Notes: generated by a model from the sequence alone, not told the origin. A DNA stretch of 64,000 nucleotides from an uncultured Candidatus Saccharibacteria bacterium (GCA_964596395.1 CAZQSY010000003.1:25678-89677), one strand, 5' to 3'; counted from the stretch's first letter, positions 8,079 to 63,487 are shown. Numbers and translations: made by a program.

Positions 8079-8081
8079 CAG

Positions 8082-9559: not shown

Positions 9560-9565
9560 GTAAAA

Positions 9566-11344: not shown

Positions 11345-11481
11345 GTACTCAAAGTTATCCACAGCCCCGCAGACAAAAATACGTTTACGCTGTTATATAA
11401 TGATATATGTTGAAGCTCGCAAGGGTGCTCATAATCAAAAGTCGCTACTTTACTAATTTATAATTTTTATGTTGCTTTTTT

Positions 11482-12657: not shown

Positions 12658-12723
12658 CCGAAAAAGAATAATTAGAACCGGCAGAAGCTCCCGAAGCTCG
12701 ACAATATCGAGAAAGAACACATT

Positions 12724-14250: not shown

Positions 14251-14259
14251 AATTTTTAA

Positions 14260-15159: not shown

Positions 15160-15163
15160 ACAC

Positions 15164-17173
15164 ATGAAACGCTTCACTTTTTTTATTGTTTCTCTTGTTT
15201 TTCTGGCTCTGCCGGGGATAAGCAAAGCGGCAACTTTGTTGCTTTCTCCGCAAGTCGGCAATTTTTCTGTCGGCTCCACTTTCAATGTCTCAATACTTTT
15301 AGATACCAAGGGTCAATCGGTAAACGCCCTGGAAGTTTCGCTTTCCTTTCCCCCCGACATGCTCCAAGTTATATCGCCGTCAACCGGCCGCTCCATAATA
15401 GAGGTCTGGACGGCTAGTCCGAAATTTGACAACAAAAGCGGCAAAATAGAACTCAGGGGCGGCATCCCGGGGGGCATAAGTGCTTCGAGCGCCCTCGTTT
15501 CTACCGTAACTTTCAGGGTTAAGTCCGTAGGAGAAAGCGCGATTAAGTTCTTAGATAACTCAAAGGTGCTACTCAACGACGGCCTAGGCACCAATGTTTT
15601 GAATCAGACGGTAAATGGGGTCTACGGTTTTAATCTTCCGCCTCCAGCCGGTCCAACTGTGGTTTCAGACACTAATCCCGACCAGGCAACATGGTATTCA
15701 AGCAAAACGGTCTCTTTAAAATTCATAAGCCAAGGTGGGGGCACGGAAGACGGATACAGTTACATACTCTCAGACAATCCCACCACTATCCCAGACGACA
15801 TAAGCGAAGGTAAGAAAAATTCAGTTTCCTACACGAACCTCACCGACGGTACGCATTATTTCCACGTCAAAGCCATGCGGGCGGGAAGCTGGGGAGGAAC
15901 GACTCATTTCGCGATTAAAATTGATTCTACTCCGCCGGCTGATTTCAAAATTGACATCGCCCCTTCAGCCCGCACCTCCACCCGCCAGCCGATTATCCAA
16001 TTCTTGACGACCGATACCCTGTCGGGAATCGAGAGTTATGATTTAAAAATAGTACCCTTGTCCGCCTATGGAAACAAAACCAGCGCCGGCGAATTTTTCA
16101 TTGAAGCAGAAAGCCCTTATTTCCCGCAAACCCTATCCGTCGGCAATTACGACGTGATTGTCCGCGCTTATGACAAATCCGGCAATTTCAGGGAGGTGAC
16201 AAAACGCCTGCAGGTGGTAGCTCCCGTTTTCTCTTTTATCTCCGCCGACGGAATAAAAATCTGGAGCATTTTAATCCCGTGGATTTATGTTTGGATTTTC
16301 CTTTTCTTGTGTATCATCGCCTTGGCGTACCTGGCTCACCGCACTAGACGCTGGCGGCACACGGTGCACTCCGCGCAAACCGAAGGCAAATTGCCGGAAG
16401 ACGTGCAAAGAGAACTCGAAGAGCTCAAGAAATACAGGGAAAAATACGGCACAGCTGTTTTGGTGCTGGCTTTGATTTTATCTTTGACACTCATCTTCCC
16501 CGGCCTGACCGAGGCCCAGACCCCCCAAATCGCTCCGCCACTCATCCAAAGCATTTCTAAAAATATTTCCAACGAAGAAATATTTTACGTCGGCGGAAAA
16601 ACGGATTTTGCCGACGAGAAGGTAATCATCTATCTGCAAAACCTGCAAACCGGCGAAACCTTCAGCCAATACATCGAAAGCGACAGTAAAGGCGACTGGT
16701 TCTATCGGCATGGCGGCTTTCTGTCTCCAGGAAACTATCTTTTGTGGACGCAGGGAAAAATAGGCGAAGAACTCTCCCCTCCCAGCCCTCAAGCCAAAAT
16801 GACGGTGAGCAGGACAGCGGTAGAATTCGGTAGCGGTCGACTTAGCTACGAGATGATTTACCTACTGATAGTGATTTTGCTCTCGGTGTGCCTGTTGGGG
16901 TTGGGTATTTATATAATTTTCCATCTCTATCACGGAAAGAAAAAGCACGCTGAACTAAAAAAGGACATCATGGAAGCAGAAGAATCTATAAAGCGGGGTT
17001 TTGCGGTGCTAAAAAGAGACATAGAAGCCGAACTCAGACTCATAAACAAAATGAAGTTATCATCCGCTATGTCTGCTGAAGAGAAGATTAGAGAAAACCA
17101 GCTTTTGTCAGACCTGGAAAACATCCAGCAAAAAATCGGCCAAGAAATCTGGGAAATTAGCGAAGAGGCCTAG
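15164..17173 (+). CDS. multi-domain membrane protein: signal peptide, cohesin domain, Ig/FN3-like domains, 3 TM segments, C-terminal coiled coil
   Basis: Likely start is MKRF at 15164. Cohesin-like 'FNVSILLDTKGQSVNALEVSLSFPPDMLQVISPSTGRSIIEVWTASPKFDNKSGKIELRGG...ALVSTVTFRVKSVGESAIKF'. 'DGTHYFHVKA' marks the Ig-like domains. TM helices lie at approximately residues 385-410, 450-470 and 555-580. C-terminal EELKKYREKYG and KDIMEAEESIKRGFAVLKRDIEAEL are coiled coil. Confidence 0.55.
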   Translation: MKRFTFFIVSLVFLALPGISKAATLLLSPQVGNFSVGSTFNVSILLDTKGQSVNALEVSLSFPPDMLQVISPSTGRSIIEVWTASPKFDNKSGKIELRGGIPGGISASSALVSTVTFRVKSVGESAIKFLDNSKVLLNDGLGTNVLNQTVNGVYGFNLPPPAGPTVVSDTNPDQATWYSSKTVSLKFISQGGGTEDGYSYILSDNPTTIPDDISEGKKNSVSYTNLTDGTHYFHVKAMRAGSWGGTTHFAIKIDSTPPADFKIDIAPSARTSTRQPIIQFLTTDTLSGIESYDLKIVPLSAYGNKTSAGEFFIEAESPYFPQTLSVGNYDVIVRAYDKSGNFREVTKRLQVVAPVFSFISADGIKIWSILIPWIYVWIFLFLCIIALAYLAHRTRRWRHTVHSAQTEGKLPEDVQRELEELKKYREKYGTAVLVLALILSLTLIFPGLTEAQTPQIAPPLIQSISKNISNEEIFYVGGKTDFADEKVIIYLQNLQTGETFSQYIESDSKGDWFYRHGGFLSPGNYLLWTQGKIGEELSPPSPQAKMTVSRTAVEFGSGRLSYEMIYLLIVILLSVCLLGLGIYIIFHLYHGKKKHAELKKDIMEAEESIKRGFAVLKRDIEAELRLINKMKLSSAMSAEEKIRENQLLSDLENIQQKIGQEIWEISEEA

Positions 17174-19719: not shown

Positions 19720-20394
19720 ATGTATAGAAAAACCCCATTTGCAGAAAATGAGCATTATCACATCTATGACAGAGGAGTGGAAAAGCGCAAAATTTTTCTT
19801 TCAAAAAAAGATTATCAGCGCTTTGTGGCCCTCCTGTACATTATGAATCAGGACGAGTCGTTCAGAATGGACAATTTTTTGCGCGAAGAAGAAAACAAGC
19901 TAGGCAATATATTCAACGAAGAAAGGAGCAAAACCCTGGTCGCCGTTTTAGGTTATTGCCTAATGCCAAACCATTTTCATTTGATTCTATATGAAAAGAG
20001 GGAAGGGGGTATAAGTAAATTTATGGCCAAACTTTTAACCGCTTACTCAATGTACTTCAACACAAAATATGAAAGAAGCGGCCCGCTCTTTACCCGACCT
20101 TTCAGGTCAGAATATATAGATAACGAACCGCAATTTATGTATATATTCTCGTATGTGCACTTGAATCCTCTTTCAGTCTTAGACAGAAAGTGGAAAGAAA
20201 ATGGCATAAAAAACAGAGACGAAGCGGAGAAATTTCTGGAAAATTATGATTACTCCAGTTATCAGGACTTCCTTAGTGCAGAAAGAGTAGAATCAAAAAT
20301 CGTTGACTTTTCTCTTGTGCCGAAATATATAAAAAACATGAGAATGGATTTAGACACGCAAGAAAAAAACCTGAGCATAAATGACGAGAGGTGA
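19720..20394 (+). CDS. HuH Y1 transposase of the IS200-like / REP-associated tyrosine transposase (RAYT, PF01797-like) family
   Basis: 'YHIYDRGVEKRKIFLSKKDYQRFVALL' matches the 'YHVtqRG..r..IF.ddeD...fl.lL' pattern. 'GYCLMPNHFHLIL' is the HuH motif. 'FMYIFSYVHLNPL' places the catalytic Tyr in the Y-x-x-x-NP context. At 224 aa it is longer than classic IS200 TnpA. Confidence 0.7.
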   Translation: MYRKTPFAENEHYHIYDRGVEKRKIFLSKKDYQRFVALLYIMNQDESFRMDNFLREEENKLGNIFNEERSKTLVAVLGYCLMPNHFHLILYEKREGGISKFMAKLLTAYSMYFNTKYERSGPLFTRPFRSEYIDNEPQFMYIFSYVHLNPLSVLDRKWKENGIKNRDEAEKFLENYDYSSYQDFLSAERVESKIVDFSLVPKYIKNMRMDLDTQEKNLSINDER

Positions 20395-31979: not shown

Positions 31980-33911
31980 ATGGCCAGAAAAAACGCACCC
32001 AATAAAACCGCGACCGGAATCATGTATGTCACCTCTAAAGGAACCGGCTACGTGAAAATCCCCGAACAAAAAGAAGACGTGGAAGTCGATTCCGCACGCT
32101 TAAACACGGCGTTAAACGGCGATACTGTTCTGGTTTCCTTGTATTCCAGGAGCGGCAAACGCCCGGCCGGTGAAGTCCTAAAAATAATTTTGCGCGCCAA
32201 AACCGGCTTCTCGGGCGTACTGCGAAAGGAAAACGGTCTCTACTTTTTAAGGCCGGACGATACAAAGATGTACGCCGATATATTAATCTCCCAAGAAGGC
32301 CTCGCAGGTGCCCGGGCCGGAGAAAAAGTCTACGTCGAGATGACTTCCTGGCGAGACCCTAAACAGAACCCGACGGGGAAAATAATAAAAATCCTGGGCG
32401 TGCCCGGCGACAATGATACCGAAATGAAAGCCATAGCGATGGAAAAAGGATTCGACGACAAACTGCCGAAAGCGGCGCAAAACGAAGCCAAAAAAGCAGA
32501 AAAACTCTCGGGTAGCAGGAGTGACTTGTCGGAAAGGAGGGACTTCCGAAAAATTCTAACCTTTACCATAGACCCTGAAAATGCCAAGGACTTTGACGAC
32601 GCGATATCGATAAAAGAAGCGGGCGCCGGCAAATGGGAGGTAGGGGTGCATATCGCGGACGTCACGCATTACGTGAAAGAAGGAAGCGAGCTGGATAAAG
32701 AGGCGCTCAAAAGAGGCACTTCAGTCTACCTGGTAGACAGAACCATACCAATGCTTCCGGAAATCCTTTCAAACGACGTGTGTTCGCTCGTCCCAAACCA
32801 AGACCGGCTCACCATGAGCGCGGTTTTCGTCCTAGATAAAAACGCGCGCGTGCTCGATGAATGGTACGGCAAAACGGTAATCCGCTCCCAAAAAAGATTT
32901 ACCTATGAAGAAGCAGAAGACGCGATAAAAAACTCTTCTGCGGTCTATCACGGGGAGCTTTCCATTTTGAACGAACTGGCAAAAAAGATGAGGAAGGAGA
33001 GATTCAGGAAAGGCGCCATTTCTCTCGACCAGGAGGAAGTAAAATTTATTCTGGATGAAAAAGGAACGCCGATAAAAATTTCAAAAAAAATGCGCGGGGA
33101 TTCCAGCCGGATGATAGAAGAATTCATGCTCCTGGCAAATCAAAAAGTGGCCGGGAAAATTTCTCTGGCTTCCGGCGAATCGGGCCAGGCGAAAGAAGTG
33201 TTCGTCTACCGGGTGCACGACAAACCAAGTAAAGAAAAAATGAATGAGCTTTGCCTGTTTCTCTCGGGAATGGGATACAAAGTTCCGATGAAAAACGGAA
33301 TCGTCCCGGCGAACGTAATCAACAGTTTACTCGAAGAACTTGCCGGTAAAAACGAAGAAGATGCCGTTCAGCGAGCGGTGGTTCGTTCCATGGCTAAAGC
33401 TGTTTACTCCACCAAAAACATCGGGCACTATGGCCTGGCTTTCAAACATTACGCGCATTTCACTTCGCCAATCCGCAGGTATCCCGACATGATTGCGCAC
33501 CGGCTCCTGTACGATTATCTGCAGGGTAAAAAAACCGGCCGGGAAAAAATTCGCGCCTATCAGGAAATCGCGGAAAGGTGCTCGGAGCGGGAAAAACAGG
33601 CAGGCGAAGCGGAAAGGGCTTCCATAAAATACAAACAGGCGGAATACATGTTCCCGCGTGTGGGGAAAATTTTCGGGGGAATCGTCTCGGGCGTTACAGA
33701 GTGGGGCATCTATGTCGAAGAAAAAGACACGAAGTGCGAAGGCCTGGTGAGAGTGCGGGACATGGCCGACGATTTTTACGCTTTTAACGAGAAAAAATCT
33801 GAAATGGTCGGACAGAAAAAAGGCAAGAAATACCGCCTGGGCACCGAGGTGAAAGTAAAAGTGAAGAACGTTGATTTGGAAAGGAAAAACATCGACTACG
33901 TGCTGATATGA
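31980..33911 (+). CDS. rnr: ribonuclease R / RNase II-family 3'-5' exoribonuclease
   Basis: N-terminal cold-shock-like OB folds. The RNB catalytic region 'LTFTIDPENAKDFDDAISIKEAG...WEVGVHIADVTHYV' and 'HYGLAFKHYAHFTSPIRRYPDMIAHR' is present. A C-terminal S1 domain follows. Confidence 0.85.
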   Translation: MARKNAPNKTATGIMYVTSKGTGYVKIPEQKEDVEVDSARLNTALNGDTVLVSLYSRSGKRPAGEVLKIILRAKTGFSGVLRKENGLYFLRPDDTKMYADILISQEGLAGARAGEKVYVEMTSWRDPKQNPTGKIIKILGVPGDNDTEMKAIAMEKGFDDKLPKAAQNEAKKAEKLSGSRSDLSERRDFRKILTFTIDPENAKDFDDAISIKEAGAGKWEVGVHIADVTHYVKEGSELDKEALKRGTSVYLVDRTIPMLPEILSNDVCSLVPNQDRLTMSAVFVLDKNARVLDEWYGKTVIRSQKRFTYEEAEDAIKNSSAVYHGELSILNELAKKMRKERFRKGAISLDQEEVKFILDEKGTPIKISKKMRGDSSRMIEEFMLLANQKVAGKISLASGESGQAKEVFVYRVHDKPSKEKMNELCLFLSGMGYKVPMKNGIVPANVINSLLEELAGKNEEDAVQRAVVRSMAKAVYSTKNIGHYGLAFKHYAHFTSPIRRYPDMIAHRLLYDYLQGKKTGREKIRAYQEIAERCSEREKQAGEAERASIKYKQAEYMFPRVGKIFGGIVSGVTEWGIYVEEKDTKCEGLVRVRDMADDFYAFNEKKSEMVGQKKGKKYRLGTEVKVKVKNVDLERKNIDYVLI

Positions 33912-35803
33912 GAAAAACAAGAGAAAAATTAAGGACTGCCGGTTGGACGATTTTTTCAGTTGGTCTGGGGGTACTGCTGGCTCATTTGGGTTCCGTCAGC
34001 GCCGGATATCAAAAAATAATTCCGGCAGCGGAAAACGTGGCGTTCGTCTCACCCGACACTAAAATCACAGACAGCGGTGAATCTTCTTCCCAGTATTTCT
34101 ATTTCACCAAAAACCCCAAACAACATCCGAGGGTATCTGCCCCTTCATACCTGGTCGGGGATTTGGATACCGGCGAAGTGATACTTTCAAACGGAAACGA
34201 CAAAACCTTCCCCATAGCGTCGGTAACCAAGCTTATGACCGCGCTAGTTGCTTCAAACTGGGCGGAAGAAAAAGACGCGGCTCTGGTTTCTAAGAAAGCG
34301 CTGGCCACTTACGGACGGAACGGCGGTCTGCGCGCCGGAGAAAAAGTAAAAGTGTCCGACCTACTGTATCCCCTGCTTCTGGAATCGAGCAACGACGCGG
34401 GAGAAGTGCTGGCCGAACATTTCAAGAGAGAGGACTTCGTCAGAGAAATGAATCTAAAAGCCATAGAGCTCGGCATGCTCAAAACCGAGTTTGAAGACCC
34501 GAGCGGCCTCTCCGCCAAAAACCAATCGACAGTTTTGGATTTATTCAAGCTGGCTTCGCACATAAACAAAGAATTGCCTGAACTGCTTCAAGTCACAACC
34601 AAAAGAAGCTATTTCACCGATAAACACAAATGGTTTTCAAACAATCAATTTCTGTCAGAAGAAGGATACTTGGGAGGCAAGAGCGGCTACACCGTCCCGG
34701 CCGGGCAAACGGTCGTTTCACTTTTTTCGGTTCCTTTGTCTGAAGAAGGCGCGCGGAATGTAGCTATAACCCTGCTCCAAAGCAAAGACCGCAAAAAAGA
34801 CGTTGAGAATATCCTGAAGTATTTGAATAAAAACATTTATTACGGCACTGAAGCCGATGCCGACACACTCTGGGTAAAGCGTAAAAGCGATATCGTGAAC
34901 GGCTCTTACGACCAAGATTTCGTCACTCTGGTTTTTGGCGGAGACATAATGCTTGACCGCGGAGTGCGAAATTCAGTAAACAAAAATTTCGGCGGCGACT
35001 ATTCTTCGCTGTTCGAAAACCTTCTTTCCTTAAAGAGAGCCGATATTTCTTTCGCCAACCTCGAAGGCCCGGCATCCGGGGAAGGCACCGACCAACGCAA
35101 CTTGTATTCTTTCAGAATGGACCCTGGGGTGATACCGGCGCTTAAGGGAGGAGGCATATCAATTGTCTCCGCCGCCAACAATCACGTCGGGGATTGGGGC
35201 CGCGACGCCTACACCGATACTTTAAAACGGCTTCAGGAAAATGAAATTCTTTACGCCGGCGGCGGAATGAGCGCGGCAGAAGCGGAACAGCCCGCGGTAA
35301 TTGAAAAATACGGAATGAAAATCGGATTCTTGGGATTTTCCGACGTCGGGCCGAATTGGATGAAGGCAGAGGAAGATAAGGCTGGAATTCTGCTCGCCAG
35401 CAATCCGCGATTCGAAGAAATCATAAAAAGCGCCGCCAGGCAGGTTGACTACCTCGTCGTTTCTTTCCATTTCGGAGAAGAGTACAAAGAAAAACACAAC
35501 GAACGGCAGGAAAATCTGGCGCATCGCGCCGTAGACGCCGGCGCAAAAATCGTGGTCGGCCACCACCCGCACGTGGCGCAAGACGTCGAAGTGTATCGGG
35601 ACGGCTTTATCGCCTACTCGCTCGGCAATTTCATTTTTGACCAGGGATTTTCAGAAAAAACGATGCAGGGCATGCTGCTAGAGGCAAAACTCTGGAAGAA
35701 CGGAGATATGACTGTGCGCAAAAACACCGTGAAGCTCAACAAATTCTTCCAGCCCGAAAGAGTGATAAACGGCAAGGAGGAGAGAATAAAGTTTGAGGAG
35801 TGA
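33908..35803 (+). CDS. fusion protein: N-terminal S11 D-alanyl-D-alanine carboxypeptidase (PBP5-like) plus C-terminal CapA/PGA_cap-like metallophosphoesterase
   Basis: Signal/TM (WTIFSVGLGVLLAHLGSVSAG). SxxK 'IASVTKLMT' and SxN 'LESSNDA' are the S11 motifs. The second half, 'LVFGGDIMLDRGV...ANLEGP...VSAANNHVGDWG...VVSFHFGEEY...VVGHHPHVAQ...GNFIFDQ', matches the CapA-type calcineurin-like phosphoesterase pattern. Confidence 0.65.
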   Translation: MRKTREKLRTAGWTIFSVGLGVLLAHLGSVSAGYQKIIPAAENVAFVSPDTKITDSGESSSQYFYFTKNPKQHPRVSAPSYLVGDLDTGEVILSNGNDKTFPIASVTKLMTALVASNWAEEKDAALVSKKALATYGRNGGLRAGEKVKVSDLLYPLLLESSNDAGEVLAEHFKREDFVREMNLKAIELGMLKTEFEDPSGLSAKNQSTVLDLFKLASHINKELPELLQVTTKRSYFTDKHKWFSNNQFLSEEGYLGGKSGYTVPAGQTVVSLFSVPLSEEGARNVAITLLQSKDRKKDVENILKYLNKNIYYGTEADADTLWVKRKSDIVNGSYDQDFVTLVFGGDIMLDRGVRNSVNKNFGGDYSSLFENLLSLKRADISFANLEGPASGEGTDQRNLYSFRMDPGVIPALKGGGISIVSAANNHVGDWGRDAYTDTLKRLQENEILYAGGGMSAAEAEQPAVIEKYGMKIGFLGFSDVGPNWMKAEEDKAGILLASNPRFEEIIKSAARQVDYLVVSFHFGEEYKEKHNERQENLAHRAVDAGAKIVVGHHPHVAQDVEVYRDGFIAYSLGNFIFDQGFSEKTMQGMLLEAKLWKNGDMTVRKNTVKLNKFFQPERVINGKEERIKFEE

Positions 35804-35807
35804 AAAA

Positions 35808-36596
35808 TTATTTCTTATATTCTTTTAGAACATCAAGGATCTCTTTGAGTATGGGAGCGCTGTTGCTTGCTATGAAAATCCTATTGGTATCGTCGGTCTC
35901 GGGATTGCCGTCAAAATCTGTAATCAACGCCCCGGCTTCCCGGCAAATCAGCTTGCCAGCCGAGAAATCATAAAGCTCCGCATTGTTATTGATAACCGCT
36001 TCGGCTTTTCCTGAAGCAAGCATGCAAAAATCAAAAGTGGGAGACCAATTATGCATTACCCTTTTTGTTTCTTTCGCATATAAATCAATAGTTACCTGTT
36101 GAGCTTTATTGGTAAAATAATTCTTGTAATCGTTGTTACAACAAATAGTAGCCCGCTTTATATCTGTCTCGCCGCTTACTTTCAGTTTCCTGCCATCGCA
36201 ATACGCGCCCTTGCCTTTCTCCGCGCAATAGATGTTGTCAATAACCGGGCTGTAAATTACTCCCGCGATTATTTCTTTCCCGAAAAGCAAGCCGATGGAA
36301 ACGGAGAAATTCGGAATCCCAAGCACAAAATTGTTTGTTCCGTCAAGCGGGTCAATGACAAAGGTATACTCTGAACCGTTGTCCGCGCTTCCCTCTTCTT
36401 CCGAATAGATGCTGTAATCGGGAAAATCTTTTTTAAGGGCGTAAATTATCGCCTCTTCCGATTCCAGGTCGGCCTTCGTTTTAAAATCGGCCGCATTCGT
36501 TTTCTGCGAAACCTCCAAGCTTTGGCCGAAATATTTGTTCAGTATCAGGCCTCCCACTTTCGCGGCTTCAATCATATTTTTCAAGGTTTTGCCCAT
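35808..36596 (-). CDS. inositol monophosphatase family protein (SuhB/IMPase-like)
   Basis: 'FVIDPLDGTNNFVLGIP' is the metal-binding motif of the IMPase/FBPase family. 'WSPTFDFCMLASGKAEAVI' is the second conserved stretch. Confidence 0.75.
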   Translation of the reverse strand: MGKTLKNMIEAAKVGGLILNKYFGQSLEVSQKTNAADFKTKADLESEEAIIYALKKDFPDYSIYSEEEGSADNGSEYTFVIDPLDGTNNFVLGIPNFSVSIGLLFGKEIIAGVIYSPVIDNIYCAEKGKGAYCDGRKLKVSGETDIKRATICCNNDYKNYFTNKAQQVTIDLYAKETKRVMHNWSPTFDFCMLASGKAEAVINNNAELYDFSAGKLICREAGALITDFDGNPETDDTNRIFIASNSAPILKEILDVLKEYKK

Positions 36597-36619: not shown

Positions 36620-38764
36620 CTATTTCGCTATCGCTTCGGCTTCTTCGAGCTTTACTGAAAGAATTTTAGAGGCGCCGTCGGCTCCGATAGTAACGCCGTA
36701 TAAAATCCCGGCGCGAGACATCGTCTCGCGGTTGTGCGTCACCACCACCAGCTGGGAGTTTTTCGAAAGCAGTTCTAGCATGTCGCCGTATTTGCGCGAG
36801 TTGGCTTCGTCAAGCGCCGCATCTGTCTCATCAAGCACCAAGAAAGGCGGAGGGTTCACGTACGACATGGCAAAAAGTACGGCAATCGAAGTAAGCGACC
36901 TCTCCCCGCCCGAAAGGGCATCAAGCTCCCGCACCTTTTTGTGCGGCAGCGACACTTCTATTGCGAGCCCTTCTTCCGTTTCTTCCTCCTCTTCTTCTTC
37001 AAGCGCCTCCGTTTCCTCTTCGCTTTTTACCTTCCTTCTTTCCTGCGCCACCACCGACAGCAAAGCAGTCCCGCCCCCGAACATCAGCGCGAAAAAGTTC
37101 TGAAATTCCTTGTTGATTCTTTCAATCCCTTTCCTGAATTCAACGTCGATTTTTTCCTTCAACTCGGCAATCAATGAATTGATGGATTCTACGCTCTTTT
37201 CCAGGTCCAAGAGCTCTTTCGCCAAAAACTCGTCCCTTTCTGAAACCTCTTTAAATTCTTTGGCAACTTCTTCCCCTCCCCCGGCGCCCATGTCTTCAAG
37301 CCGAATTTTTATGCGCTCGATTTTTTTCCGCGCTTCTTCCTGTAAAACACGGTCAACTTTTTCATCTTCTTCTTCCTCCGAAGAAGGTTCTTTTTTGAAG
37401 CGAAGTATTTCTTCCCCGACCAGCACCACCCCTTCTTTTATTTCGTTTTCCAGAAAAAGCGCTTCTTTGGATAAATTATCCTCGCGCGCCCGCAGGAACT
37501 GGAGGGCAGAATTGAGTTCCTGTTCTTTAACTTTCAAAGAAAACTTCTCTTTTTCCAAAAGGTGCATCGACTCCATCTCTTTGTTTACTTCCCGCTTCAA
37601 GAGTTCCGTCTTTTCCAAAATCCTTTTTTCTTCGGACTTACCGTTTTCCAGCTCGGCCAGTAATTTGTCTCTCGAATTTTTAAGTTCGGCTACTTCGCGC
37701 TCTTCGTTTTGTTTCTTTTCAATCTGCTCCGGTGTGGTTTCTGCCAGGATGCTGCCGCACATGGGGCACTTCCCCGACACCTTCACCCTGTTTTCTTTTG
37801 CTTCCAGCATGCCCTCTATCCTGCCCAATTGCCTGCCTTTCTCGGCGCCTTCCGCCCGCAATCTGATTATTTCCTGTTCCAGCGTTTTAATTTCTCCGAT
37901 TTTCGCGCTGCCCTGCGGTGAAATATTCCCTTCTCTTTCCGCCAGCGAAATTTTAGAGGAAATTTTTTTTATCTCCTCCTCTAATCTGCTTTTTTCCCGG
38001 CTTATCGCCTTCCCTTCTTTTTTCAAATATGAACTTTCCTTCCTGAAATATTCAAAATAGAGCACTTTCAGTTCTTCCTGAATCTCTTTCGCCTTATCCA
38101 GCTTTTCCATCTGCTTCTTTAAAAAATTAAGATGCGGGGCGTTCTCTCGCCGAAGCATCGACACCTCTTTCATATTCTCTTCGGTTTTCAAAAGTTTCCG
38201 CTCCGATTCCCTTATCCGGTAGCGGTAAATTTTTAGGCCTAAAGCGTCCTCCACCATCTCGCGGCGCTCTCTGGGATTCGCGTTCAAAATCCTGTCCGCC
38301 TCGCCCTGGGAAATTATGTGGTGTCCCGACGAGCCGATATTCACCGAAGCAAGCAAACTGTTCACGTCTTTCAAACGCACACCTTCCCCGTTCAAAAGAT
38401 ATTCATTCAGCCCGTCCGAAAATACCTCGCGCCCGATAGAAACGGTCTCGTAATTCAAATTTACTTTCTCGCCCTCCTCGTTTGACAGCTGAAAAACTTT
38501 GTCGGAGTTGTTGAAATATATTGAAACCGCCGCGCGCGAACTTTTCGGCAAATTTTTGGAGCCCTTAAAAATCATGTCCGCGCCACTCCCGCCGCGCATC
38601 GACTTCATTGATTGTTCGCCCAAGACAAAGCGAATCGCTTCTACCACGTTTGATTTGCCCGAGCCGTTCGGGCCGACAATCGCCACAATCGGTTTCCCAA
38701 ACTCCAAAACCGTCTTTCGGGAGAATGATTTAAAACCGTTCAGTTCAAGATGTTTGAGCCGCAT
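36620..38764 (-). CDS. smc: SMC-family ATPase, miniaturised (714 aa) with a CPxC motif at the coiled-coil apex instead of a hinge domain
   Basis: N-terminus 'LELNGFKSFSRKT...IVGPNGSGKSNVVEAIRFVLGEQSMKSMRGGSGADMIF' is the SMC Walker A head. C-terminus 'LSGGERSLTSIAVLFAMSYVNPPPFLVLDETDAALDEANSRKYGDML...VVTHNRETM' is the signature, Walker B and D-loop. The middle is all coiled coil with 'KCPMCGS' near residue 330 and no globular GGxG hinge. It lies immediately downstream of rnc, in the conserved rnc-smc order. Confidence 0.7.
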   Translation of the reverse strand: MRLKHLELNGFKSFSRKTVLEFGKPIVAIVGPNGSGKSNVVEAIRFVLGEQSMKSMRGGSGADMIFKGSKNLPKSSRAAVSIYFNNSDKVFQLSNEEGEKVNLNYETVSIGREVFSDGLNEYLLNGEGVRLKDVNSLLASVNIGSSGHHIISQGEADRILNANPRERREMVEDALGLKIYRYRIRESERKLLKTEENMKEVSMLRRENAPHLNFLKKQMEKLDKAKEIQEELKVLYFEYFRKESSYLKKEGKAISREKSRLEEEIKKISSKISLAEREGNISPQGSAKIGEIKTLEQEIIRLRAEGAEKGRQLGRIEGMLEAKENRVKVSGKCPMCGSILAETTPEQIEKKQNEEREVAELKNSRDKLLAELENGKSEEKRILEKTELLKREVNKEMESMHLLEKEKFSLKVKEQELNSALQFLRAREDNLSKEALFLENEIKEGVVLVGEEILRFKKEPSSEEEEDEKVDRVLQEEARKKIERIKIRLEDMGAGGGEEVAKEFKEVSERDEFLAKELLDLEKSVESINSLIAELKEKIDVEFRKGIERINKEFQNFFALMFGGGTALLSVVAQERRKVKSEEETEALEEEEEEETEEGLAIEVSLPHKKVRELDALSGGERSLTSIAVLFAMSYVNPPPFLVLDETDAALDEANSRKYGDMLELLSKNSQLVVVTHNRETMSRAGILYGVTIGADGASKILSVKLEEAEAIAK

Positions 38765-38767
38765 TTT

Positions 38768-39472
38768 TTATTCAGTCCAGTTCTTCAGCTTTAGCGCCGC
38801 TTCGGCCGCTTTTTGTTCGGCCTCCTGTTTCGATTTCCCCCTCCCTTCGGTCACCAGTTCGGAACCAAAGAAAATTCCGACCGTAAAGTGCTTGTCATGG
38901 TCGGGACCGGTCTCGCGCAAAATTTTATAGGACGGAGTAACGCCGATAATTTCCTGCACCTTCTCCTGCACCAAGCTCTTGGCATCCCGCCAAAGTTTCC
39001 TGGAAACAATTTCTTCCGTTCTGGGAAGCAAAGTCGAAGCGATAAATTTTTTTGCCGTTTCGTATCCCTGGTCTAGATAAACCGCCCCGATATAGGCCTC
39101 GAAAGTATTGGCCAGGATATACTGCCGCGCCTTGCCGTTGTCTTTGGATTCCCCTTTTGAAAGTAAAAGATAATCGTTCATGCCGATTTTCGCGGCAATT
39201 TCTGAAATTATAATGGCGTTCACCAGCGCCGAACGAATAGCAGTGAGCTCCCCTTCGGTATGCGAAGGATACTTCCGGTAAAGAAAATCAGTCACGATAA
39301 GCTCCAAAATCGCGTCGCCAAGAAACTCCAGGCGTTCGTTGTGCGATAACTTGGAAGCCGGATTTTCATTGATATACGAACGGTGTATGAACGCCTGTTT
39401 TAGCAGTCCTTTGTCTTTGAAAATTATTTTTGTTTTTTTCTCAAACTCGGAAAAGTTTTTTGTTTTATCCAT
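38768..39472 (-). CDS. rnc: ribonuclease III
   Basis: '[20 protein letters not shown]' is the signature. A C-terminal dsRBD follows. Confidence 0.9.
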
Positions 39473-40403
39473 TTCGTTTAAAATTACCTTTGGCTAAAAT
39501 CTCAACGGCCCTGCTTATAAGGGGAATTATGTCGCCGTAAATGCGCAACTCGGGAATCTCCGAGAGCTGAAACCATTTGGCGTCATCCAGCCCTCCGGAA
39601 GTTCCTAGAGATAAATCCTTGTACTCGGCCTCGCCCAGAAAATAAGTGACTCTCTTTAAAACTTTGCCGGTTTCCGGATGAGTGGCCACATATTCGTTTT
39701 CGCCGAGTTTTTCCTTGATTACAATATCCAGGCCAATTTCTTCTTTTATTTCCCTAATAGTGCCTTCTTCCACGTTTTCGTTTTCTTCAATGCGTCCCTT
39801 AGAAAGTGTCCAATACCCGAACACGTCGTGCACTAAAGCAATTAAGACACTATCGTTGTGCCGCGCGTAGACCAGCGCTCCACCGAGTTTCTCTTTGCGC
39901 ATTTGAGAAGTATCCGCGACCTCTTCCGTTTTGTTTTTTTTGCTGACCTGCTCTTTGCCGGGCTCGCCGATTTCCTTGTACACGGCACCCAGCACTCCGT
40001 TCACAAATTTGCTGGAATTCTCGCCCCCGAAGGTTTTGGCCAGTTCTATCGCTTCGTTAATGGCCACCTTCGGCGGCACTTCCTTGCGGTCTCCAAAAAG
40101 AAGTTCCGTCAGCCCGATGCGCAGGATATTCCTGTCTACGACAGAAATCTTATCCAGGGGCCATTCCGGGGCGGCTTTCTCTATTATTTCATCTACCACA
40201 GAACGTTTTTTGAGAACCCGTTCGGCTAGAAAAAAAACGAACGAATCGTCTTCGAGCCCGGGTGCGAACTCCCGCATGTTTCTCTTTATCGCTTCTTTAA
40301 CCTTTTCTTCATCGAAAGAGCCGGGATGTCCGGTTTCAGACATAAAATCCCGTTCAAAGAGGGCTTGGAGCACTATTGACCTTGAAAGGTGCCGATTCGC
40401 CAT
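39465..40403 (-). CDS. nusB: NusB-Nudix fusion protein
   Basis: N-terminal half '[14 protein letters not shown]...[28 protein letters not shown]' is a near-verbatim NusB signature. C-terminal half carries the Nudix box '[23 protein letters not shown]' (Gx5Ex7REUxEExGU). Confidence 0.7.
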
Positions 40404-48616: not shown

Positions 48617-49093
48617 TCATTTATATCCTTTTGCCAGCTTAAAGGTCTTCACGCTATCCTTCAGTTTTATCTTTTCCAAATAATCCAGAAACTCTTGCGG
48701 TAGAGGCGAAGGTCCGACCCAGACACTTTTTTGTATCATTGTGTATTTAAATTTTTTCAGGTGCCAACGCAACCATTCCCTCTCAGCTTTCTTAGCTTCA
48801 GGCACATCAAACATAAGCATGAGGTTTTTGGGCGCGTTTTTCTCAAACATAAAATCAAATTGTCGTAAGGAATCAATTTTCCTCCTAATGTAATCTCTGC
48901 CCCTTCTGGTCACACACAAACCTTCGTCACTCTCTCCCACTAATCCATCTTTGACTAGATTTGACATGGTGGCACGCAAAGAATTGGATGGGTACTTCCT
49001 AAATTTTGGCAAACCAAGGAAGTTCACGCGCATTCCCTTATAGTTAAGAGAATCCCTGCTAAGTTCCTTCAAAATATCCAGAATGATTGTCAT
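48617..49093 (-). CDS. PaaX-like winged-helix transcriptional regulator (short)
   Basis: N-terminal wHTH-like 'LRATMSNLVKDGLV'. C-terminal 'LMLMFDVPEAKKAEREWLRWHLKKFKYTMIQKSVWVGPSP' resembles the PaaX C-terminal pattern (W.G.W.lv.ydvPe..r..LR..L...G...L..SVW..P). Confidence 0.4.
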   Translation of the reverse strand: MTIILDILKELSRDSLNYKGMRVNFLGLPKFRKYPSNSLRATMSNLVKDGLVGESDEGLCVTRRGRDYIRRKIDSLRQFDFMFEKNAPKNLMLMFDVPEAKKAEREWLRWHLKKFKYTMIQKSVWVGPSPLPQEFLDYLEKIKLKDSVKTFKLAKGYK

Positions 49094-49191: not shown

Positions 49192-50010
49192 CTAAGCGAT
49201 AAGTTCTCTGATAATATCGGCTTTGTGCACAACGTCGTTATACCCTATACGCATAGTTTTTATTATATGTTCCCTAGTATTGTCTAAGGTACCCGAAAAT
49301 AACCTTACACCGGGCTTTATAATTAAAATATTTTTATCTTTATAGTTATGTCTCGTCTCCCGAGTATAAGACCACACTTTTTCCCTGACGTATTTTCCCA
49401 AAAACAAGGAAAAAAATCGCAGAAGATTTTTAGAGAAGAAATCATGATGTGAATTATCAAAAGCAATAATTACTTCGGCTCCCTCCTGTTTTGCCTTCTT
49501 GATATTCACATCCAAGGGAGCCTCAATGGCGCCGTCTATATAAAGGTTTCTTTTTATTCTCACTAATTTGTTGTAAACAACGGGAGCGGCGTTTGAGGCC
49601 CGCAATGCTTCAAATATATCTACGTCATCCTTGTTGCTCACGTACTCTATCTTCTTATTATTAACGTTCGTCACGGAAACAAAAAACTTTATTTTTGACT
49701 CTTTAACCGACCGAGTATCAAGGGGGTCCTGTTTCTTGAAAATTTCGTCTATCAGATAATCAATATCCATAATTTCTCCCAACCTCCAGAATGAAACAAA
49801 TTTTTTCGAAGGGAGAAGATTCTGCCAAATATTTTTTATTGAACCGTATTGCCTGGCGACGTAATACGCGAGCGTACCGGTACTGCCGGAACTGCCTACG
49901 ACCATGTACGGGTCGGTGAAATTCAATTTTTCCACGAGCGCTAAAATAGCACCGGTAAAATAGGCGCAGGACATACCTCCTTCCGAACCGATAATGGCAA
50001 CTTTCTTCAT
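49192..50010 (-). CDS. patatin-like phospholipase
   Basis: Oxyanion 'VAIIGSEGGMSCAYFTG' (GxGxxG). Nucleophile elbow 'GSSGS' (GxSxG). Catalytic Asp region 'YIDGAI'. The likely start is MKKVAII at 50010, whose ATG overlaps the helicase TGA stop in an ATGA arrangement. The track start is 50043. Confidence 0.8.
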   Translation of the reverse strand: MKKVAIIGSEGGMSCAYFTGAILALVEKLNFTDPYMVVGSSGSTGTLAYYVARQYGSIKNIWQNLLPSKKFVSFWRLGEIMDIDYLIDEIFKKQDPLDTRSVKESKIKFFVSVTNVNNKKIEYVSNKDDVDIFEALRASNAAPVVYNKLVRIKRNLYIDGAIEAPLDVNIKKAKQEGAEVIIAFDNSHHDFFSKNLLRFFSLFLGKYVREKVWSYTRETRHNYKDKNILIIKPGVRLFSGTLDNTREHIIKTMRIGYNDVVHKADIIRELIA

Positions 50011-53000
50011 GCGGTTTTGTAGATTCTCTTCATCATCTCGCAATATTCACAGGAATTTGTCACCTGTCTGCCGGCAGGCAGGAAAGATTTATAATCGCAA
50101 GGCCTGTCGAGCCATTTGCCCGTCTTGACTAAGGTTTCATAATCTTTTATGTCCTGCAGAAGCAGGTCAAACCGGTCTCGCCCGATGGTGGTGCTGTAAA
50201 CGCTTTCTTTCCCGTCTTTGGCTTCCAAAAATTCCAGACGGGATTCATTCACACTCACTCGGCCTTTCGAGCTACGCTCTAGAAGAAAAGAATACATCGC
50301 GAGCTGGCGCATGTAATCGCTCATGCGGCCTCTCGCCCCGTCTGTAAAGGCGGGGTCTTCATTTATTTTCTCAATATCCGACTTTTTGCGCACACTGCCC
50401 GTCTTGAAATCGGTCACCCGCACATCCCTCTCGCCTAATTTCTCGACCAAATCTATCTTTCCGTAAATACTCAAGCGGGGAAACTCCGCGGCTCGCACGG
50501 ACACGCTTTTCTCGGTTTCCCTGTCGGGGTTTATCTCGGCGAATCTTTCTTTCACCCACCTCGAAATTATTCTAAGCAAACCCTTCTCGCCTTGCGCGAT
50601 TTCCTCCAAATCTTTTCCAGAAGGCGGTTTTCTGAATTTTAGAATCTTTTCCATAGCCGCGTGCACTCTGGACCCGAATTCAAGGGTCTCATTTTTCGGC
50701 TCGGGCAGTTTGAGCAGATTGCGGAAATACCATTTTCTGGGACATTCAAAAAAATTATTCAGGAGCGAGACCGAAACATTCACCTCGGCGTATTCTTTCG
50801 AAACCATCTCTAGAAGTTTAGGGATTGTATCTTGGACGTCGTTTTTCTCGCCAGAGGCGACATAATTTTTCGGGTCGTCCGATAAAATTTTCTCTTCAGT
50901 TTCGCTGAAGGTTAATTTTTCAAAAACACTGTCTGCTTGCCCCGCGTTGGCGGCGGCAAGCTCTGATACGATTTTGGCCAACTCCTGCTCCCGACCCGAA
51001 TAAGAGAACCTGGGGTAAGAAAGTCGGCAAAATCTCTTGGCTCTGGTGATGGCCACGTAGAGTTCTCTCTTGGCCGCCGCTTCGTCTTTTTCTTCCACCT
51101 TCAGGGCAACTGATTCGGGCAATCTGAAATTCCGCCGCCGGCCTTTCATGAGCGAACCTTCGTCTAAGTGGGCAACCCAGACAAAATCAAATTCCAAACC
51201 CTTCGAAGCGTGCAGGGTTATGACTTTTACTCCTTCGTCGCTTTTAAACGAGGCGAGCGGAAAATCCTCTCCGTATTCGCGCAACCTTTCAATGAAAGCG
51301 ATAAATCCCGGGAGAGAATTCTTTTCCTGGCGGTTTTCCTTTTCCGCAAACGAAAGAGCGAGATGCAAGACGCTGCGGACTACTTCTATTCTCTCCAAAA
51401 GTTCCGTGTGGCCCTTGGCGGTCTTCAACAAAACCTCGTCGCCGACTTTTTGCACAAATTCCTGCATATCTAGCGAAGACGAAAAAGAAACCAACCGGAG
51501 CAATTTTTCTCCCCATTCTTTTATCTCCCGGGTTCCGCTCGAACCGAACAAGTCCTCTCTTTGGCCGGCCATATCCTGCAAGCTTACTGTCTTGCCTCTT
51601 TCTTGGTACAGATACGAGTGCGCGGCGAGACGGGGTATCCCCGATACCGGGTCTAAGATGCTTTCGGCGAGCGGTACGGGGTCGTGAATATTCGCGCAAA
51701 TTTTGAAAACTCGAAGCAAAGCAGAAAATTCCGCCGTTGCAAAAAGCGACAGGCCCCGCGCCCCGGCCACTTTTATGCCCAAACCTCCGAGAACCCGCAT
51801 GGCCTCGCGGGCCTGCGTATTCTTCGGCACCAAGATGGCGCAATCGCTTTCTTTCACTTCCTTGCTCAGCAGTTTTTCTTTGAGCTCAATTCCGCAAGCG
51901 ATAACCTCGTCGCGCGGATAGTCGCATTCAAAAAGCTTCAGGTTGTGATTTTCTTTGAGGGTAGCGACCAATTTTTCCTCTGAGAAAGAACTCGACAGAA
52001 GCTTATCGGCGGCAGCGAGTATTTTTTGAGTGGAGCGATAATTCTGGGTCAGAAATATAACTTTTGCTTTGCCGAAAATGTCTTTGAATTCTTCAAAATA
52101 AGAGAACTTCGCCCCGCCGAAAGCGTAGATGAGCTGACGGTCGTCGCCGACGGCAAAAATGTTGGGCTTTTCTACTTTCTGCCAAATCGTTTTCAGCAGA
52201 GCGTTTTGCGCGCCACTCGAATCCTGATGTTCGTCAACCAAAACATACAAATATCTTACCTGTATTTCGGCCCGGGCATTTTCGGATTCTTCTAAAATTT
52301 GGAGCGCGTATTTTATCTGGTCGTCATAATCCAAGAGCCCCTTTTCTTGCTTAAGCTTTTCGTACATATCGTAGAAGGACACGATTTCTTTGGTGCGCTC
52401 CAGACCTTCTATCTTTTCCAAATATTCTTTTTTCATTTTTCCTTTCGTTTCTCCCCGGCTCGAAATGCTCTCGGGGTCGTTTTGTATCGCCTGGATTTCT
52501 TTTTCAATTTCATCCAGAAAATCCCGTGGCGACAATCTTTCGCGCTTCAAAAGCGAGACAAGCGAGCGCAGTTCTTTGAAATGCCTGCCGATGTCGCCCC
52601 TGGGACGGAGGTACTGCCATTCGTTCTGGCGCAAAATCTGGTCGCATAAAGATACGGCCTCGGTATCCTCTAAAATTCGCGGAGCAAAAGGCAGAGAAAG
52701 AACGTGAAAAAATTCATCAATGATTTTCCCGCAAAAACTGTGAAAAGTAAGCACTTCTACCCGCCCGCCTTCTTCGCCTATATACTTCTGTAATCGCTCG
52801 CGCATGGCGCGAACGGCCGAATTGGTGAAAGTAAGACATAAGATAGAATCTGCGCCGACATCCGTTTTTTTTAAAATATTGCCTATGCGCAAGGCCAAAA
52901 TCTGGGTCTTGCCCGTACCTGGCCCGGCCACCACCATGACCGGACCGTCTATCGTGTCTACCGCCTCTTTTTGAGCGGGATTTAATTTGCGATATTCGTC

Positions 53001-53060
53001 GTCAAATAATCCGGGAGCCATCGTGCCCCTATTATACCCCGCCTTTTGTTTCAGCGACAT
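50007..53060 (-). CDS. UvrD/PcrA-like SF1 helicase fused to a C-terminal PD-(D/E)xK (RecB/Cas4/AddB-type) nuclease with 4 Cys (Fe-S cluster-type)
   Basis: Helicase motif I 'VVAGPGTGKTQIL', 'CLTFTNSAVRAMRERL', motif II 'VLVDEHQDSSG', plus later helicase motifs. C-terminal 'CPRKWYF', then 'IYGKIDLVEKL' and 'VTDFKTGS' (DYKTG-like), then 'RPCDYKSFLPAGRQVTNSCEYC'. A REP-1 copy encodes LPAGRQV between the Cys residues. Confidence 0.8.
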   Translation of the reverse strand: MSLKQKAGYNRGTMAPGLFDDEYRKLNPAQKEAVDTIDGPVMVVAGPGTGKTQILALRIGNILKKTDVGADSILCLTFTNSAVRAMRERLQKYIGEEGGRVEVLTFHSFCGKIIDEFFHVLSLPFAPRILEDTEAVSLCDQILRQNEWQYLRPRGDIGRHFKELRSLVSLLKRERLSPRDFLDEIEKEIQAIQNDPESISSRGETKGKMKKEYLEKIEGLERTKEIVSFYDMYEKLKQEKGLLDYDDQIKYALQILEESENARAEIQVRYLYVLVDEHQDSSGAQNALLKTIWQKVEKPNIFAVGDDRQLIYAFGGAKFSYFEEFKDIFGKAKVIFLTQNYRSTQKILAAADKLLSSSFSEEKLVATLKENHNLKLFECDYPRDEVIACGIELKEKLLSKEVKESDCAILVPKNTQAREAMRVLGGLGIKVAGARGLSLFATAEFSALLRVFKICANIHDPVPLAESILDPVSGIPRLAAHSYLYQERGKTVSLQDMAGQREDLFGSSGTREIKEWGEKLLRLVSFSSSLDMQEFVQKVGDEVLLKTAKGHTELLERIEVVRSVLHLALSFAEKENRQEKNSLPGFIAFIERLREYGEDFPLASFKSDEGVKVITLHASKGLEFDFVWVAHLDEGSLMKGRRRNFRLPESVALKVEEKDEAAAKRELYVAITRAKRFCRLSYPRFSYSGREQELAKIVSELAAANAGQADSVFEKLTFSETEEKILSDDPKNYVASGEKNDVQDTIPKLLEMVSKEYAEVNVSVSLLNNFFECPRKWYFRNLLKLPEPKNETLEFGSRVHAAMEKILKFRKPPSGKDLEEIAQGEKGLLRIISRWVKERFAEINPDRETEKSVSVRAAEFPRLSIYGKIDLVEKLGERDVRVTDFKTGSVRKKSDIEKINEDPAFTDGARGRMSDYMRQLAMYSFLLERSSKGRVSVNESRLEFLEAKDGKESVYSTTIGRDRFDLLLQDIKDYETLVKTGKWLDRPCDYKSFLPAGRQVTNSCEYCEMMKRIYKTA
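50064..50083. repeat. REP-1 palindrome copy 4 (CCTGTCTGCCGGCAGGCAGG, 1 substitution), in-frame in the helicase-nuclease C-terminus
   Basis: It encodes LPAGRQ on the minus strand within the Cys-cluster linker. Confidence 0.75.
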
Positions 53061-63478: not shown

Positions 63479-63487
63479 AAGGCCGTT

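Follow-up and report, generated by a model that had tools for sequence, protein, structure and literature searches.

The smc gene and its product

The stretch of DNA analyzed here, called the window throughout, comprises 64,000 nucleotides (nt) from an uncultured Candidatus Saccharibacteria bacterium (GCA_964596395.1 CAZQSY010000003.1:25678-89677). On its minus strand, at 36620..38764 (stop codon, 36620-36622), we found an smc gene that encodes a short SMC protein of 714 amino acids (aa). We classed the product as a hinge-less SMC from the list of open reading frames (ORFs), Pfam, TIGR02168, the PDB and Foldseek, and we argue below that it probably carries a Rad50-type cysteine knuckle in place of the hinge. 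A preliminary description of this DNA had put the protein at about 60% of normal SMC length, which is correct for the intact ORF. Both termini (N terminus, MRLKHLELNGFKSF; C terminus, …LYGVTIGADGASKILSVKLEEAEAIAK) align end to end with the extreme ends of the Bacillus subtilis Smc head, and the product is therefore neither truncated nor fused.

The two halves of the ATPase head were delimited from motif positions, invariant columns and the alignment to the B. subtilis Smc head. The N-terminal half (aa 1-175; 38240..38764, minus strand) carries the Walker A motif GPNGSGKS (aa 31-38; window 38651-38674), the SMC-type R57 and the Q-loop SQG (aa 152-154). The C-terminal half (aa 506-714; 36623..37249, minus strand) carries the signature LSGGE (aa 617-621; window 36902-36916), the Walker B motif FLVLDE (aa 641-646; window 36827-36844) with its catalytic E646 kept, the D-loop, and the H-loop histidine H677. 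Walker A, Q-loop, signature, Walker B, D-loop and H-loop were all invariant across a 48-sequence alignment. Judged by its sequence, the head, with the neck and joint described below, appears complete and catalytically competent.

The head also contains insertions relative to B. subtilis Smc. A family-conserved insertion of ~10 residues, FQLSNEEGEKVNL, occupies aa ~91-103 of the N-terminal head (window ~38456-38494, minus strand). In the C-terminal head, an acidic, length-variable loop, ERRKVKSEEETEALEEEEEEETEE (aa 575-598; 36971..37042, minus strand), was located from the translation, the predicted local distance difference test (pLDDT) score and a gap in the B. subtilis Smc alignment. This loop precedes the strand leading to the signature motif, is found in all family members and not in B. 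subtilis Smc, and had a pLDDT of <50 over residues 575-595 of the full-length AlphaFold2 (AF2) model. It might mimic DNA or serve in regulation.

Comparison with other families set the protein among the SMCs. Pfam SMC_N matched residues 3-699 (E = 1.4e-56). The NCBIfam bacterial SMC model, TIGR02168, matched in two stretches confined to the heads and proximal arms and scored 491.7 bits, against 31-54 bits for the NCBIfam Rad50, RecN, SbcC and ASRP models. Each of the latter fell short of its cutoff: the Rad50/SbcC head models NF041034 (54.4 bits; cutoff, 1000) and TIGR00618 (30.7 bits; cutoff, 478.5), the ASRP model NF045487 (54.1 bits; cutoff, 300), and the RecN model TIGR00634 (48.6 bits; cutoff, 407.85). 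The top PDB sequence matches were the Smc heads of B. subtilis (5XG3; E = 1.6e-74) and Geobacillus (5.3e-65), and the best Rad50 came in at E = 5e-12. The full-length AF2 model was mediocre (pLDDT, 69.6; shallow 48-sequence alignment), and its top Foldseek match was 5XEI, a Pyrococcus Smc head with coiled coil and joint (9.5e-22).

We then considered gene order. A scan of one genome per GTDB species gave 80 related loci, 78 of them with an smc ORF, and these 78 together with a separately fetched locus, L001, make up a 79-locus census. Rnc was found beside smc in 73 of the 79 loci and NusB in 74. This conserved nusB-rnc-smc order supports SMC orthology rather than a repair or defense paralog. 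We consider it very probable that the 714-aa protein is an SMC ortholog, as the preliminary description had proposed, the head, neck and joint all being of the SMC type. Public records label these short SMCs only “AAA family ATPase,” and SMC is therefore under-called in Patescibacteria genomes.

The N-terminal coiled-coil strand (aa 176-329; 37778..38239, minus strand) was defined by AF2 helices, colinearity with TIGR02168 and invariant neck residues. It consists of helices 178-279 and 284-329, separated by a break at aa 280-283, and the SMC neck within it (ALGLKIY.Y.I.ESERKL...) is strongly conserved. The C-terminal strand, which includes the SMC joint (aa 345-505; 37250..37732, minus strand), was defined by AF2 helices, the B. 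subtilis Smc alignment and Foldseek. On this side the helices span 345-449, 451-457, 463-467, 472-492 and 497-562; the breaks around aa 450-471 and 493-496 belong to the joint region, where LEDMGAGGGEEVAKEFKEVSERDEFL is homologous to the joint loop of B. subtilis Smc. TIGR02168 is colinear with the protein over residues 2-282 (model positions 1-272), and at the other end the final ~300 residues line up with the ~310 that close a full-length SMC. Residues ~283-409 therefore take the place of ~600 residues of a canonical SMC, the distal arm halves and the hinge being gone.

No Pfam match to SMC_hinge (PF06470) was found in the protein, nor, with the threshold relaxed to E <= 1, in eight divergent members of the family, and we regard the absence of a hinge as almost certain. 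In both the full-length and the apex-only AF2 models, the region of C333 and C336 is a 15-residue nonhelical turn between long helices, not a hinge fold. The preliminary description, which had already noted the lack of a globular hinge, raised a cryptic hinge fold around these cysteines as an objection; neither model contains one.

The turn itself (aa 330-344; 37733..37777, minus strand) is a nonhelical loop with a small beta-bridge at the tip of the coiled coil, according to DSSP of the AF2 models. It holds the motif CPMC (C333-P334-M335-C336; 37757..37768, minus strand), identified from translation, alignment and profile as a putative half of an intermolecular Cys4 zinc site. C333 and C336, within KCPMCG, are the sole cysteines of the 714-aa protein. 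The apex-only model (aa 251-430, from a 36-sequence alignment) had a pLDDT of 90.3 and showed two long helices and the 15-residue turn with CPMC. In the 48-sequence alignment, C333, P334, C336 and G337 were invariant, as were R311, L313, G314, R315, E317, G318 and E321 just upstream. Measured between strict sequence anchors, the N-terminal strand is 155 aa long and the C-terminal strand 167 aa, and this near symmetry around the motif places CPMC at the coiled-coil apex, where the preliminary description had put it.

The apex resembles the zinc hook of Rad50. A 20-sequence apex profile searched against the PDB returned the Pyrococcus furiosus Rad50 zinc hooks 1L8D (1.3e-4) and 6ZFF (2.9e-4) as its top two matches, the alignment covering ~94 positions with GKCPxCGxEL in register. 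The single sequence from the window likewise had 1L8D as its top PDB match (E = 0.023), and Rad50_zn_hook (PF04423) was matched by more apex fragments than any other Pfam family (14 of 20; best E = 7.4e-4). As a control, we shuffled the 1L8D segment. The real segment scored 27.1 bits with the apex profile, and none of 1,000 full shuffles exceeded 13.8 bits. Changing Cys to Ala lowered the score to 18.0 bits, a loss of ~9 bits. When a core of 10 residues was kept and the flanks were shuffled, scores averaged 17.9 ± 3.8 bits, and 17 of 1,000 shuffles reached the real score. We take this as good evidence that the apex carries a Rad50-type hook motif; as to its origin, profile scores would suit common descent and convergence alike. 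That CPxCG forms an intermolecular zinc hook we consider probable.

The arms of these hook-type proteins are of uniform length. By the strict anchors, the median strands of 127 hook types were 153 aa (N-terminal) and 162 aa (C-terminal), and the interquartile range of the mean strand length was 157.5-160.5 aa. Published work sets the head boundaries less tightly, and on that basis the arm comes to ~160-165 aa (~24 nm), half that of B. subtilis Smc. For Smc arms, Burmann et al. (PMC5344682) reported a wild-type length of 344 aa, a natural minor length mode at 163 aa, and engineered arms that were functional with a 91-aa period. Taking two periods from the wild-type length (344 minus 2 x 91) gives 162 aa, which matches the arm length found here. 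The fit of a natural arm to this periodicity is suggestive, not proof. In that survey the arms were located between head and hinge alignments, and hinge-less proteins would therefore have escaped the count. The fit would carry the periodicity rule, derived with engineered B. subtilis Smc, down to far shorter arms.

Apex types in related genomes

The 120 closest homologs in a 5.8-billion-protein database were 703-752 aa long, 63-66% identical, and from Patescibacteria (Nomurabacteria, Paceibacterota), and all 120 had CxxCG at the apex. A HMMER search of 1.84 billion cluster representatives gave 29,179 matches, the best 150 of which were all short (643-797 aa) save two apparent fragments (524 and 584 aa). 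A central CxxC was present in only 7 of these 150, and none had a CxxC away from the apex. The others were mostly 730-780 aa, many of them cysteine-free.

The cysteine-free forms have a conserved two-helix apex module of ~45 aa (…IS.EE…IDEA…I..IL..IK..L..F…) together with a variable linker. The module is homologous family-wide, conserved and amphipathic. It showed no likeness to a hinge and no natural domain match in the PDB, and is presumably a novel dimerization module. We also considered a cryptic or degenerate hinge in these insert-type relatives and rejected it, as PF06470 gave no match at E <= 1 and the insert had no hinge similarity. Since most members carry the two-helix insert instead, the hinge is missing family-wide and the hook is the feature of a subclade. 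The 714-aa protein is thus one member of a very large Parcubacteria family of hinge-less SMCs of ~700-780 aa, and we place its host among the Parcubacteria, with a tiny genome. Across the 78 loci with an smc ORF, the apex was G[KR]CPxCG in 19, a CxYCGQ variant in 2 and an insert in 57. The 80 loci of the scan were titled Nomurabacteria, Paceibacterota, Minisyncoccia, Vogelbacteria, Yonathbacteria or Parcubacteria, with the lineage given as Patescibacteria > Parcubacteria.

Hook and insert types run together as far as RKLGRIEGM[IL]E (aa 311-321) and rejoin at ELKNSQ (aa ~359-365). Between these points, translation, junction alignment and region-wise distances define an apex cassette of ~37 aa, AKENRVKVSGKCPMCGSILAETTPEQIEKKQNEEREV (aa 322-358; 37691..37801, minus strand), which stands in place of the ~75- to 80-aa two-helix insert of sister lineages. 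The preliminary description had the hook in the direct place of the hinge; in the clade of the 714-aa protein, the cassette instead replaces the insert.

We built a neighbor-joining (NJ) tree of 227 short SMCs with the apex left out. The hook group of the 714-aa protein fell inside a 42-leaf clade in which it was mixed with insert types. Further CxxC groups lay elsewhere among insert lineages (P0131/L063/L079, P0143/P0189, P0209/P0210 and P0173), in which the motif instead reads C-x-[YTVA]-C-[GAK]-Q. Internal branches within the 42-leaf clade were very short. NJ trees made from SMC minus the apex, from four neighbor genes and from the concatenation all interleaved hook and insert types, and hook monophyly was recovered in 0 of 60 bootstraps in each of the three.

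Pairwise p-distances by region told more than the trees. Hook-hook and hook-insert values were, respectively, 0.182 and 0.184 for Rnc, 0.261 and 0.255 for NusB, 0.223 and 0.243 for RNase R, and 0.419 and 0.429 for ThrRS; they were 0.175 and 0.169 for the N-terminal SMC head and 0.187 and 0.197 for the C-terminal SMC head. Hook-insert distances thus equal hook-hook distances in the four neighbor genes and in all SMC regions off the apex. Only the apex-adjacent segment (SMC aa 345-380) differed, at 0.484 versus 0.713. The ordering hook-hook < hook-insert <= insert-insert was seen in 4 of 6 markers. For the clade of the 714-aa protein, this fits a single origin of the hook within an insert-type grade in the course of a rapid radiation. 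Counting the other CxxC flavor, which sits in a different major clade, the hook would have arisen at least twice.

The exchange at one locus offers the strongest indirect argument that the two apex modules are equal in function. Because they occur in otherwise equivalent proteins at the same locus, both may be taken to do the same job, that of holding the arm tips together.

Interpretation and alternatives

We read the gene as encoding a miniaturized SMC (condensin-type) ortholog with a Rad50-type CPxCG knuckle in place of the hinge, and we assign this reading a probability of about 0.7. Two protomers, each supplying two cysteines, would form one tetrahedral Zn2+ site. Through this shared site the apex would be dimerized constitutively and the arms aligned into a rod, after the manner of Rad50. 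The other end of the ring would be closed by engagement of the heads, which depends on ATP, and presumably by a kleisin, and the closed ring could then entrap DNA and extrude loops.

Several results weigh against this reading. The TIGR02168 score lies under the curated cutoff (491.7 versus 567.35 bits), which is accounted for by the missing distal arm halves and hinge. All Rad50_zn_hook matches were under the gathering score, and the apex fragment of the 714-aa protein itself was unmatched. The 10-residue motif provides most of the profile similarity, the flanks adding only ~9 bits (p ~0.02). A Foldseek search with the apex model, whose result is consistent with a hook and nonspecific, returned only generic coiled-coil hairpins (E > 0.01). 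Rad50 hooks stood at ranks 10, 23 and 28 in that list. It contained 1L8D, with a target-normalized TM score of 0.76 and a root mean square deviation of 3.9 Å, as well as 5GOX, 7ZQY and LmuB structures. We infer zinc binding, intermolecular dimerization, rod geometry, kleisin use and a role in chromosome segregation, and the AF2 models are monomeric.

The search for partners also counts on this side. In the 79-locus census no conserved unknown partner stood beside smc, only housekeeping families. ScpA and ScpB, which the preliminary description had not seen nearby, were not found in the 64-kb window, in a 10-kb extension or in ~1.5 Mb of related loci, which amounts to ~2-3% of each genome. These searches used jackhmmer with PDB-verified seeds, as well as metagenome-derived profiles of 65 ScpA and 79 ScpB sequences; the profiles gave nothing better than E = 0.2 in the DNA searched. 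About two operons would have been expected by chance in the sampled DNA, so that P(0) is ~0.13 and the missing ScpAB is weak evidence. A metagenome scan for ScpB returned only Firmicutes-like loci and is uninformative on ScpB in Parcubacteria.

The preliminary description called the protein a natural SMC/Rad50 chimera. This stands insofar as an SMC head is combined with a Rad50-type apex motif. It does not stand as a description of an isolated oddity, the protein being a member of a huge hinge-less family with a mostly cysteine-free apex, and as an account of recombination with a Rad50/SbcC gene it is doubtful, the similarity lying mostly in the 10-residue motif retained in the shuffle control. 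That the cassette was gained from a Rad50/SbcC (or LmuB/ASRP) gene through recombination, and that the protein is a true chimera and not a product of de novo convergence, is in our view rather unlikely, although the apex profile does align to the P. furiosus Rad50 hook over ~94 positions, the native flanks outscore 98% of flank shuffles, and the exchanged segment is sharply bounded in otherwise equidistant proteins. Most of the score is carried by the motif core, CPxCG is a generic rubredoxin-type knuckle, and no donor gene has been identified. The appearance of a different CxxC flavor in another clade means that de novo invention of an apex CxxC is evidently easy, and this favors repeated invention. 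Taking the sequences alone, convergence would be equally possible as recombination with Rad50/SbcC.

The cysteines might instead merely staple or cap the hairpin turn, as a structural knuckle, a redox-active disulfide or a metal site with non-Cys ligands, with dimerization occurring elsewhere (arm-arm, heads, kleisin) or not at the apex. This would agree with the closed, beta-bridged turn that the monomer models show in the absence of a partner, with the nonspecific Foldseek result and subthreshold Pfam hook matches, and with the cysteine-free apex of most relatives. We nevertheless judge it improbable. Two cysteines alone make no stable zinc site, and there is no other conserved Cys or His nearby. 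The extended motif, G-[KR]-C-P-x-C-G-x-E-[IL], fits the Rad50 hook beyond the cysteines, and the two-helix module that the hook replaces is conserved and amphipathic, as expected of an interaction module. All studied SMC-superfamily proteins with an apex CPxCG dimerize through it (PMC10586767, PMC9389158).

A DNA repair SMC-like paralog of the Rad50/SbcC or RecN type, with a canonical SMC elsewhere in the genome, is very improbable, though such a second SMC may exist outside the DNA searched. A hook is the hallmark of Rad50/SbcC, 714 aa is nearer to the size of RecN or of small Rad50s, the window encodes an AddA-like helicase-nuclease, and the DNA examined consisted of the window, its extension and the flanks of related loci rather than whole genomes. 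The head, however, is far closer to SMC than to Rad50, SbcC or RecN, the SMC-specific neck and joint are kept, the position of smc behind rnc is conserved in nearly all related genomes, and the best 150 cluster representatives from 1.8 billion proteins are short forms. Within the window, where we scanned every ORF of at least 98 aa and some shorter ones by Pfam or NCBIfam, no second SMC, SbcCD, RecN or MukEF was found among the ORFs scanned. Across the window, its 10-kb extension and the flanking DNA of related loci, no other SMC-superfamily ORF was seen, and neither the window nor the related loci showed an Mre11/SbcD.

An anti-phage defense ATPase, LmuB of Lamassu or a similar SMC-like protein, is scarcely credible and was rejected on score, Walker B and gene context: PADLOC gave mad3 200.8 bits and LmuB 94 bits over the full length, LmuB structures occur among the apex Foldseek matches, and LmuB fits in size and motif as described (PMC10586767), but the SMC model outscores that of LmuB (492 versus 94 bits), the Walker B glutamate that LmuB generally changes to Q is kept, and the neighbors include no LmuA, LmuC or other defense genes, with a housekeeping order across ~75 genomes.

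In the field, an SMC is understood to have a hinge and a kleisin, and Rad50 a zinc hook and Mre11, with LmuB as a small hook-bearing relative of Rad50 (2023 review, PMC10586767). A miniaturized, hook-bearing SMC ortholog would cut across this rule: it appears to descend from SMC and to work like one, fails on the hinge, and may have either borrowed or reinvented the Rad50 solution. With bacterial Smc (B. subtilis type, TIGR02168) it shares the ATPase head, complete with every motif and the SMC arginine, the neck and joint, an antiparallel intramolecular coiled coil, a gene position downstream of rnc and, where the two align, ~40% identity to the head of B. subtilis Smc. Unlike bacterial Smc, it has no hinge, arms of ~160 rather than ~344 aa per strand, a length ~470 residues shorter, a score below the family cutoff and an acidic loop in the C-terminal head, and ScpA/ScpB were not found in the DNA searched.

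The hook itself matches that of Rad50/SbcC (1L8D, 6ZFF, 5GOX; PF04423) in its motif G-K-C-P-x-C-G-x-E-L, which caps an antiparallel coiled coil, and in its two Cys per chain, whereas the head is of the SMC type, no Mre11/SbcD partner gene was found in the DNA searched and the Pfam hook score is subthreshold. ASRP proteins (ClsN/coalescin, Sph1/2; PMC9389158) are likewise chromosome-organizing members of the SMC superfamily, of ~600-700 aa, with a zinc hook and not a hinge; they form an archaeal family separate from SMC that coexists with or replaces canonical SMC, while the protein described here is a bacterial SMC ortholog. LmuB (PMC10586767) is similar in its ~650 aa, its ~20-nm coiled coils and the CPxCG of many members. 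It differs in lying in defense islands with LmuA/LmuC and usually having Walker B changed from E to Q, where the 714-aa protein has an intact Walker B, a housekeeping operon and much stronger SMC similarity.

A B. subtilis Smc whose hinge was replaced by the P. furiosus Rad50 zinc hook, Smc(Zh), allowed normal growth (Burmann et al. 2017, PMC5344682). The 714-aa SMC looks like a natural counterpart of Smc(Zh), two periods shorter. In both, an SMC head and arms are capped by a CPxCG hook, and the arm-length tolerance of Smc(Zh) obeys the periodic rule that the natural arm fits. Unlike Smc(Zh), the 714-aa protein is natural and conserved in many genomes, its hook lies within native flanks and was not transplanted, and its arms are two periods shorter than those of any variant reported functional, the shortest functional window being 253-267 aa.

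In the full-text literature, subscription-only papers excluded, we found neither a zinc hook reported for a natural bacterial SMC ortholog nor hinge-less SMCs reported for the candidate phyla radiation (CPR)/Patescibacteria. Current models give the hinge an active part in DNA binding, DNA entry and exit, and selective obstacle bypass (PMC12647877, PMC9467508). A conserved hinge-less SMC ortholog with half-length arms and a zinc hook would imply that the core SMC job is feasible without a hinge, and it provides a compact natural protein for structural and single-molecule work. Close pairs of hook and insert types that differ only at the apex likewise make a comparative system for the contribution of the dimerization module.

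A bolder and more tentative proposal, which we hold as possible rather than probable, is that the SMC apex of Parcubacteria is a freely exchangeable cassette, in a class that lacks the hinge and half of each arm and has gained a Cys2 hook at least twice with no compensating change. If so, the Smc(Zh)/mini-Smc experiment would already have been done by nature, and the hinge fold, the hinge DNA gate and ~50-nm arms would not be required for core SMC function. The complexes might then use a noncanonical kleisin or none, no ScpAB having been seen so far.

Gene neighborhood and other features of the window

Directly upstream of smc lies rnc, encoding RNase III (38768..39472, minus strand; Pfam and sequence), whose stop codon is 3 nt from the smc ATG. 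The rnc start is overlapped by a nusB-NUDIX fusion (39465..40403, minus strand; Pfam NusB, 2.1e-32, and NUDIX, 1.1e-12), the first gene of the nusB-rnc-smc array. The fusion protein is 312 aa long with the NUDIX hydrolase domain at its C terminus. Its presence beside rnc in 74 of 79 related Parcubacteria loci makes it a conserved lineage feature and not an annotation artifact. The order of the array was kept with both hook and insert apex types, and nusB(-NUDIX)-rnc-smc was also found on an 813-kb contig. In B. subtilis the arrangement is rncS-smc-ftsY (PMC5344682); here ftsY is not downstream of smc. The recurrent neighbors in the census were all housekeeping genes (RNase R, ThrRS, S16, a KH protein, TrmD and GyrB).

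On the other side, 23 nt downstream of smc and on the same strand, is a gene of the inositol monophosphatase family (35808..36596, minus strand; Pfam Inositol_P, 2.6e-53), which is probably in the same operon. This neighbor is not conserved in related genomes, and L001 has Maf at that position. Small ORFs that recur downstream of smc encode transposase, RNase HII, Maf, PaaX-like proteins, deacetylase and secreted proteins. In nine related genomes, a Y1 (REP-associated-type) transposase-like gene lies directly downstream of smc on the opposite strand (L023, 12137-12832, and eight other loci). The window has its own IS200/Y1-transposase-like ORF at 19720-20394 (plus strand).

Four window ORFs fall in the range of 1000-1200 aa, encoding RpoB, RpoC, an AddA-like helicase-nuclease and a surface protein. 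The AddA-like protein (50007-53060, minus strand; 1017 aa) combines a UvrD helicase with a C-terminal PD-(D/E)XK nuclease, and no AddB- or RecC-like partner is visible nearby. The surface protein (58838-63964, minus strand; 1202 aa) has InlB B-repeats and LamG and adjoins several pilin-like genes (N_methyl motif). Just past the window end, the 10-kb 3' extension of the source contig (L003, 1-10000) contains type IV pilus genes in a complete cluster, with PilM, PilB, PilT, PilC and prepilin peptidase; the 5' side added nothing new.

In a 631-aa ORF at 33908-35803 (plus strand), a D-Ala-D-Ala carboxypeptidase (Peptidase_S11) is joined to a capsule synthesis domain, PGA_cap (metallophosphatase-like), which L001 encodes on its own in a gene of 364 aa. 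A small PaaX_M/Cas2-like protein is encoded at 48617-49093 (minus strand) beside a patatin-like phospholipase, in the lowest-GC part of the window (48-50 kb; GC, 0.394), and the PaaX_M family recurs in several related loci (L001, L006 and L011). Finally, eight consecutive ORFs of 116-682 aa occupy 8045-17173 (plus strand), six of them without a Pfam match. The 682-aa ORF had only a subcutoff Y_Y_Y match, the 172-aa ORF has a dockerin domain, and the 592-aa ORF lies in the highest-GC stretch of that part of the window (10-12 kb; GC, 0.53). The run may be a lineage-specific block of surface or secreted genes.

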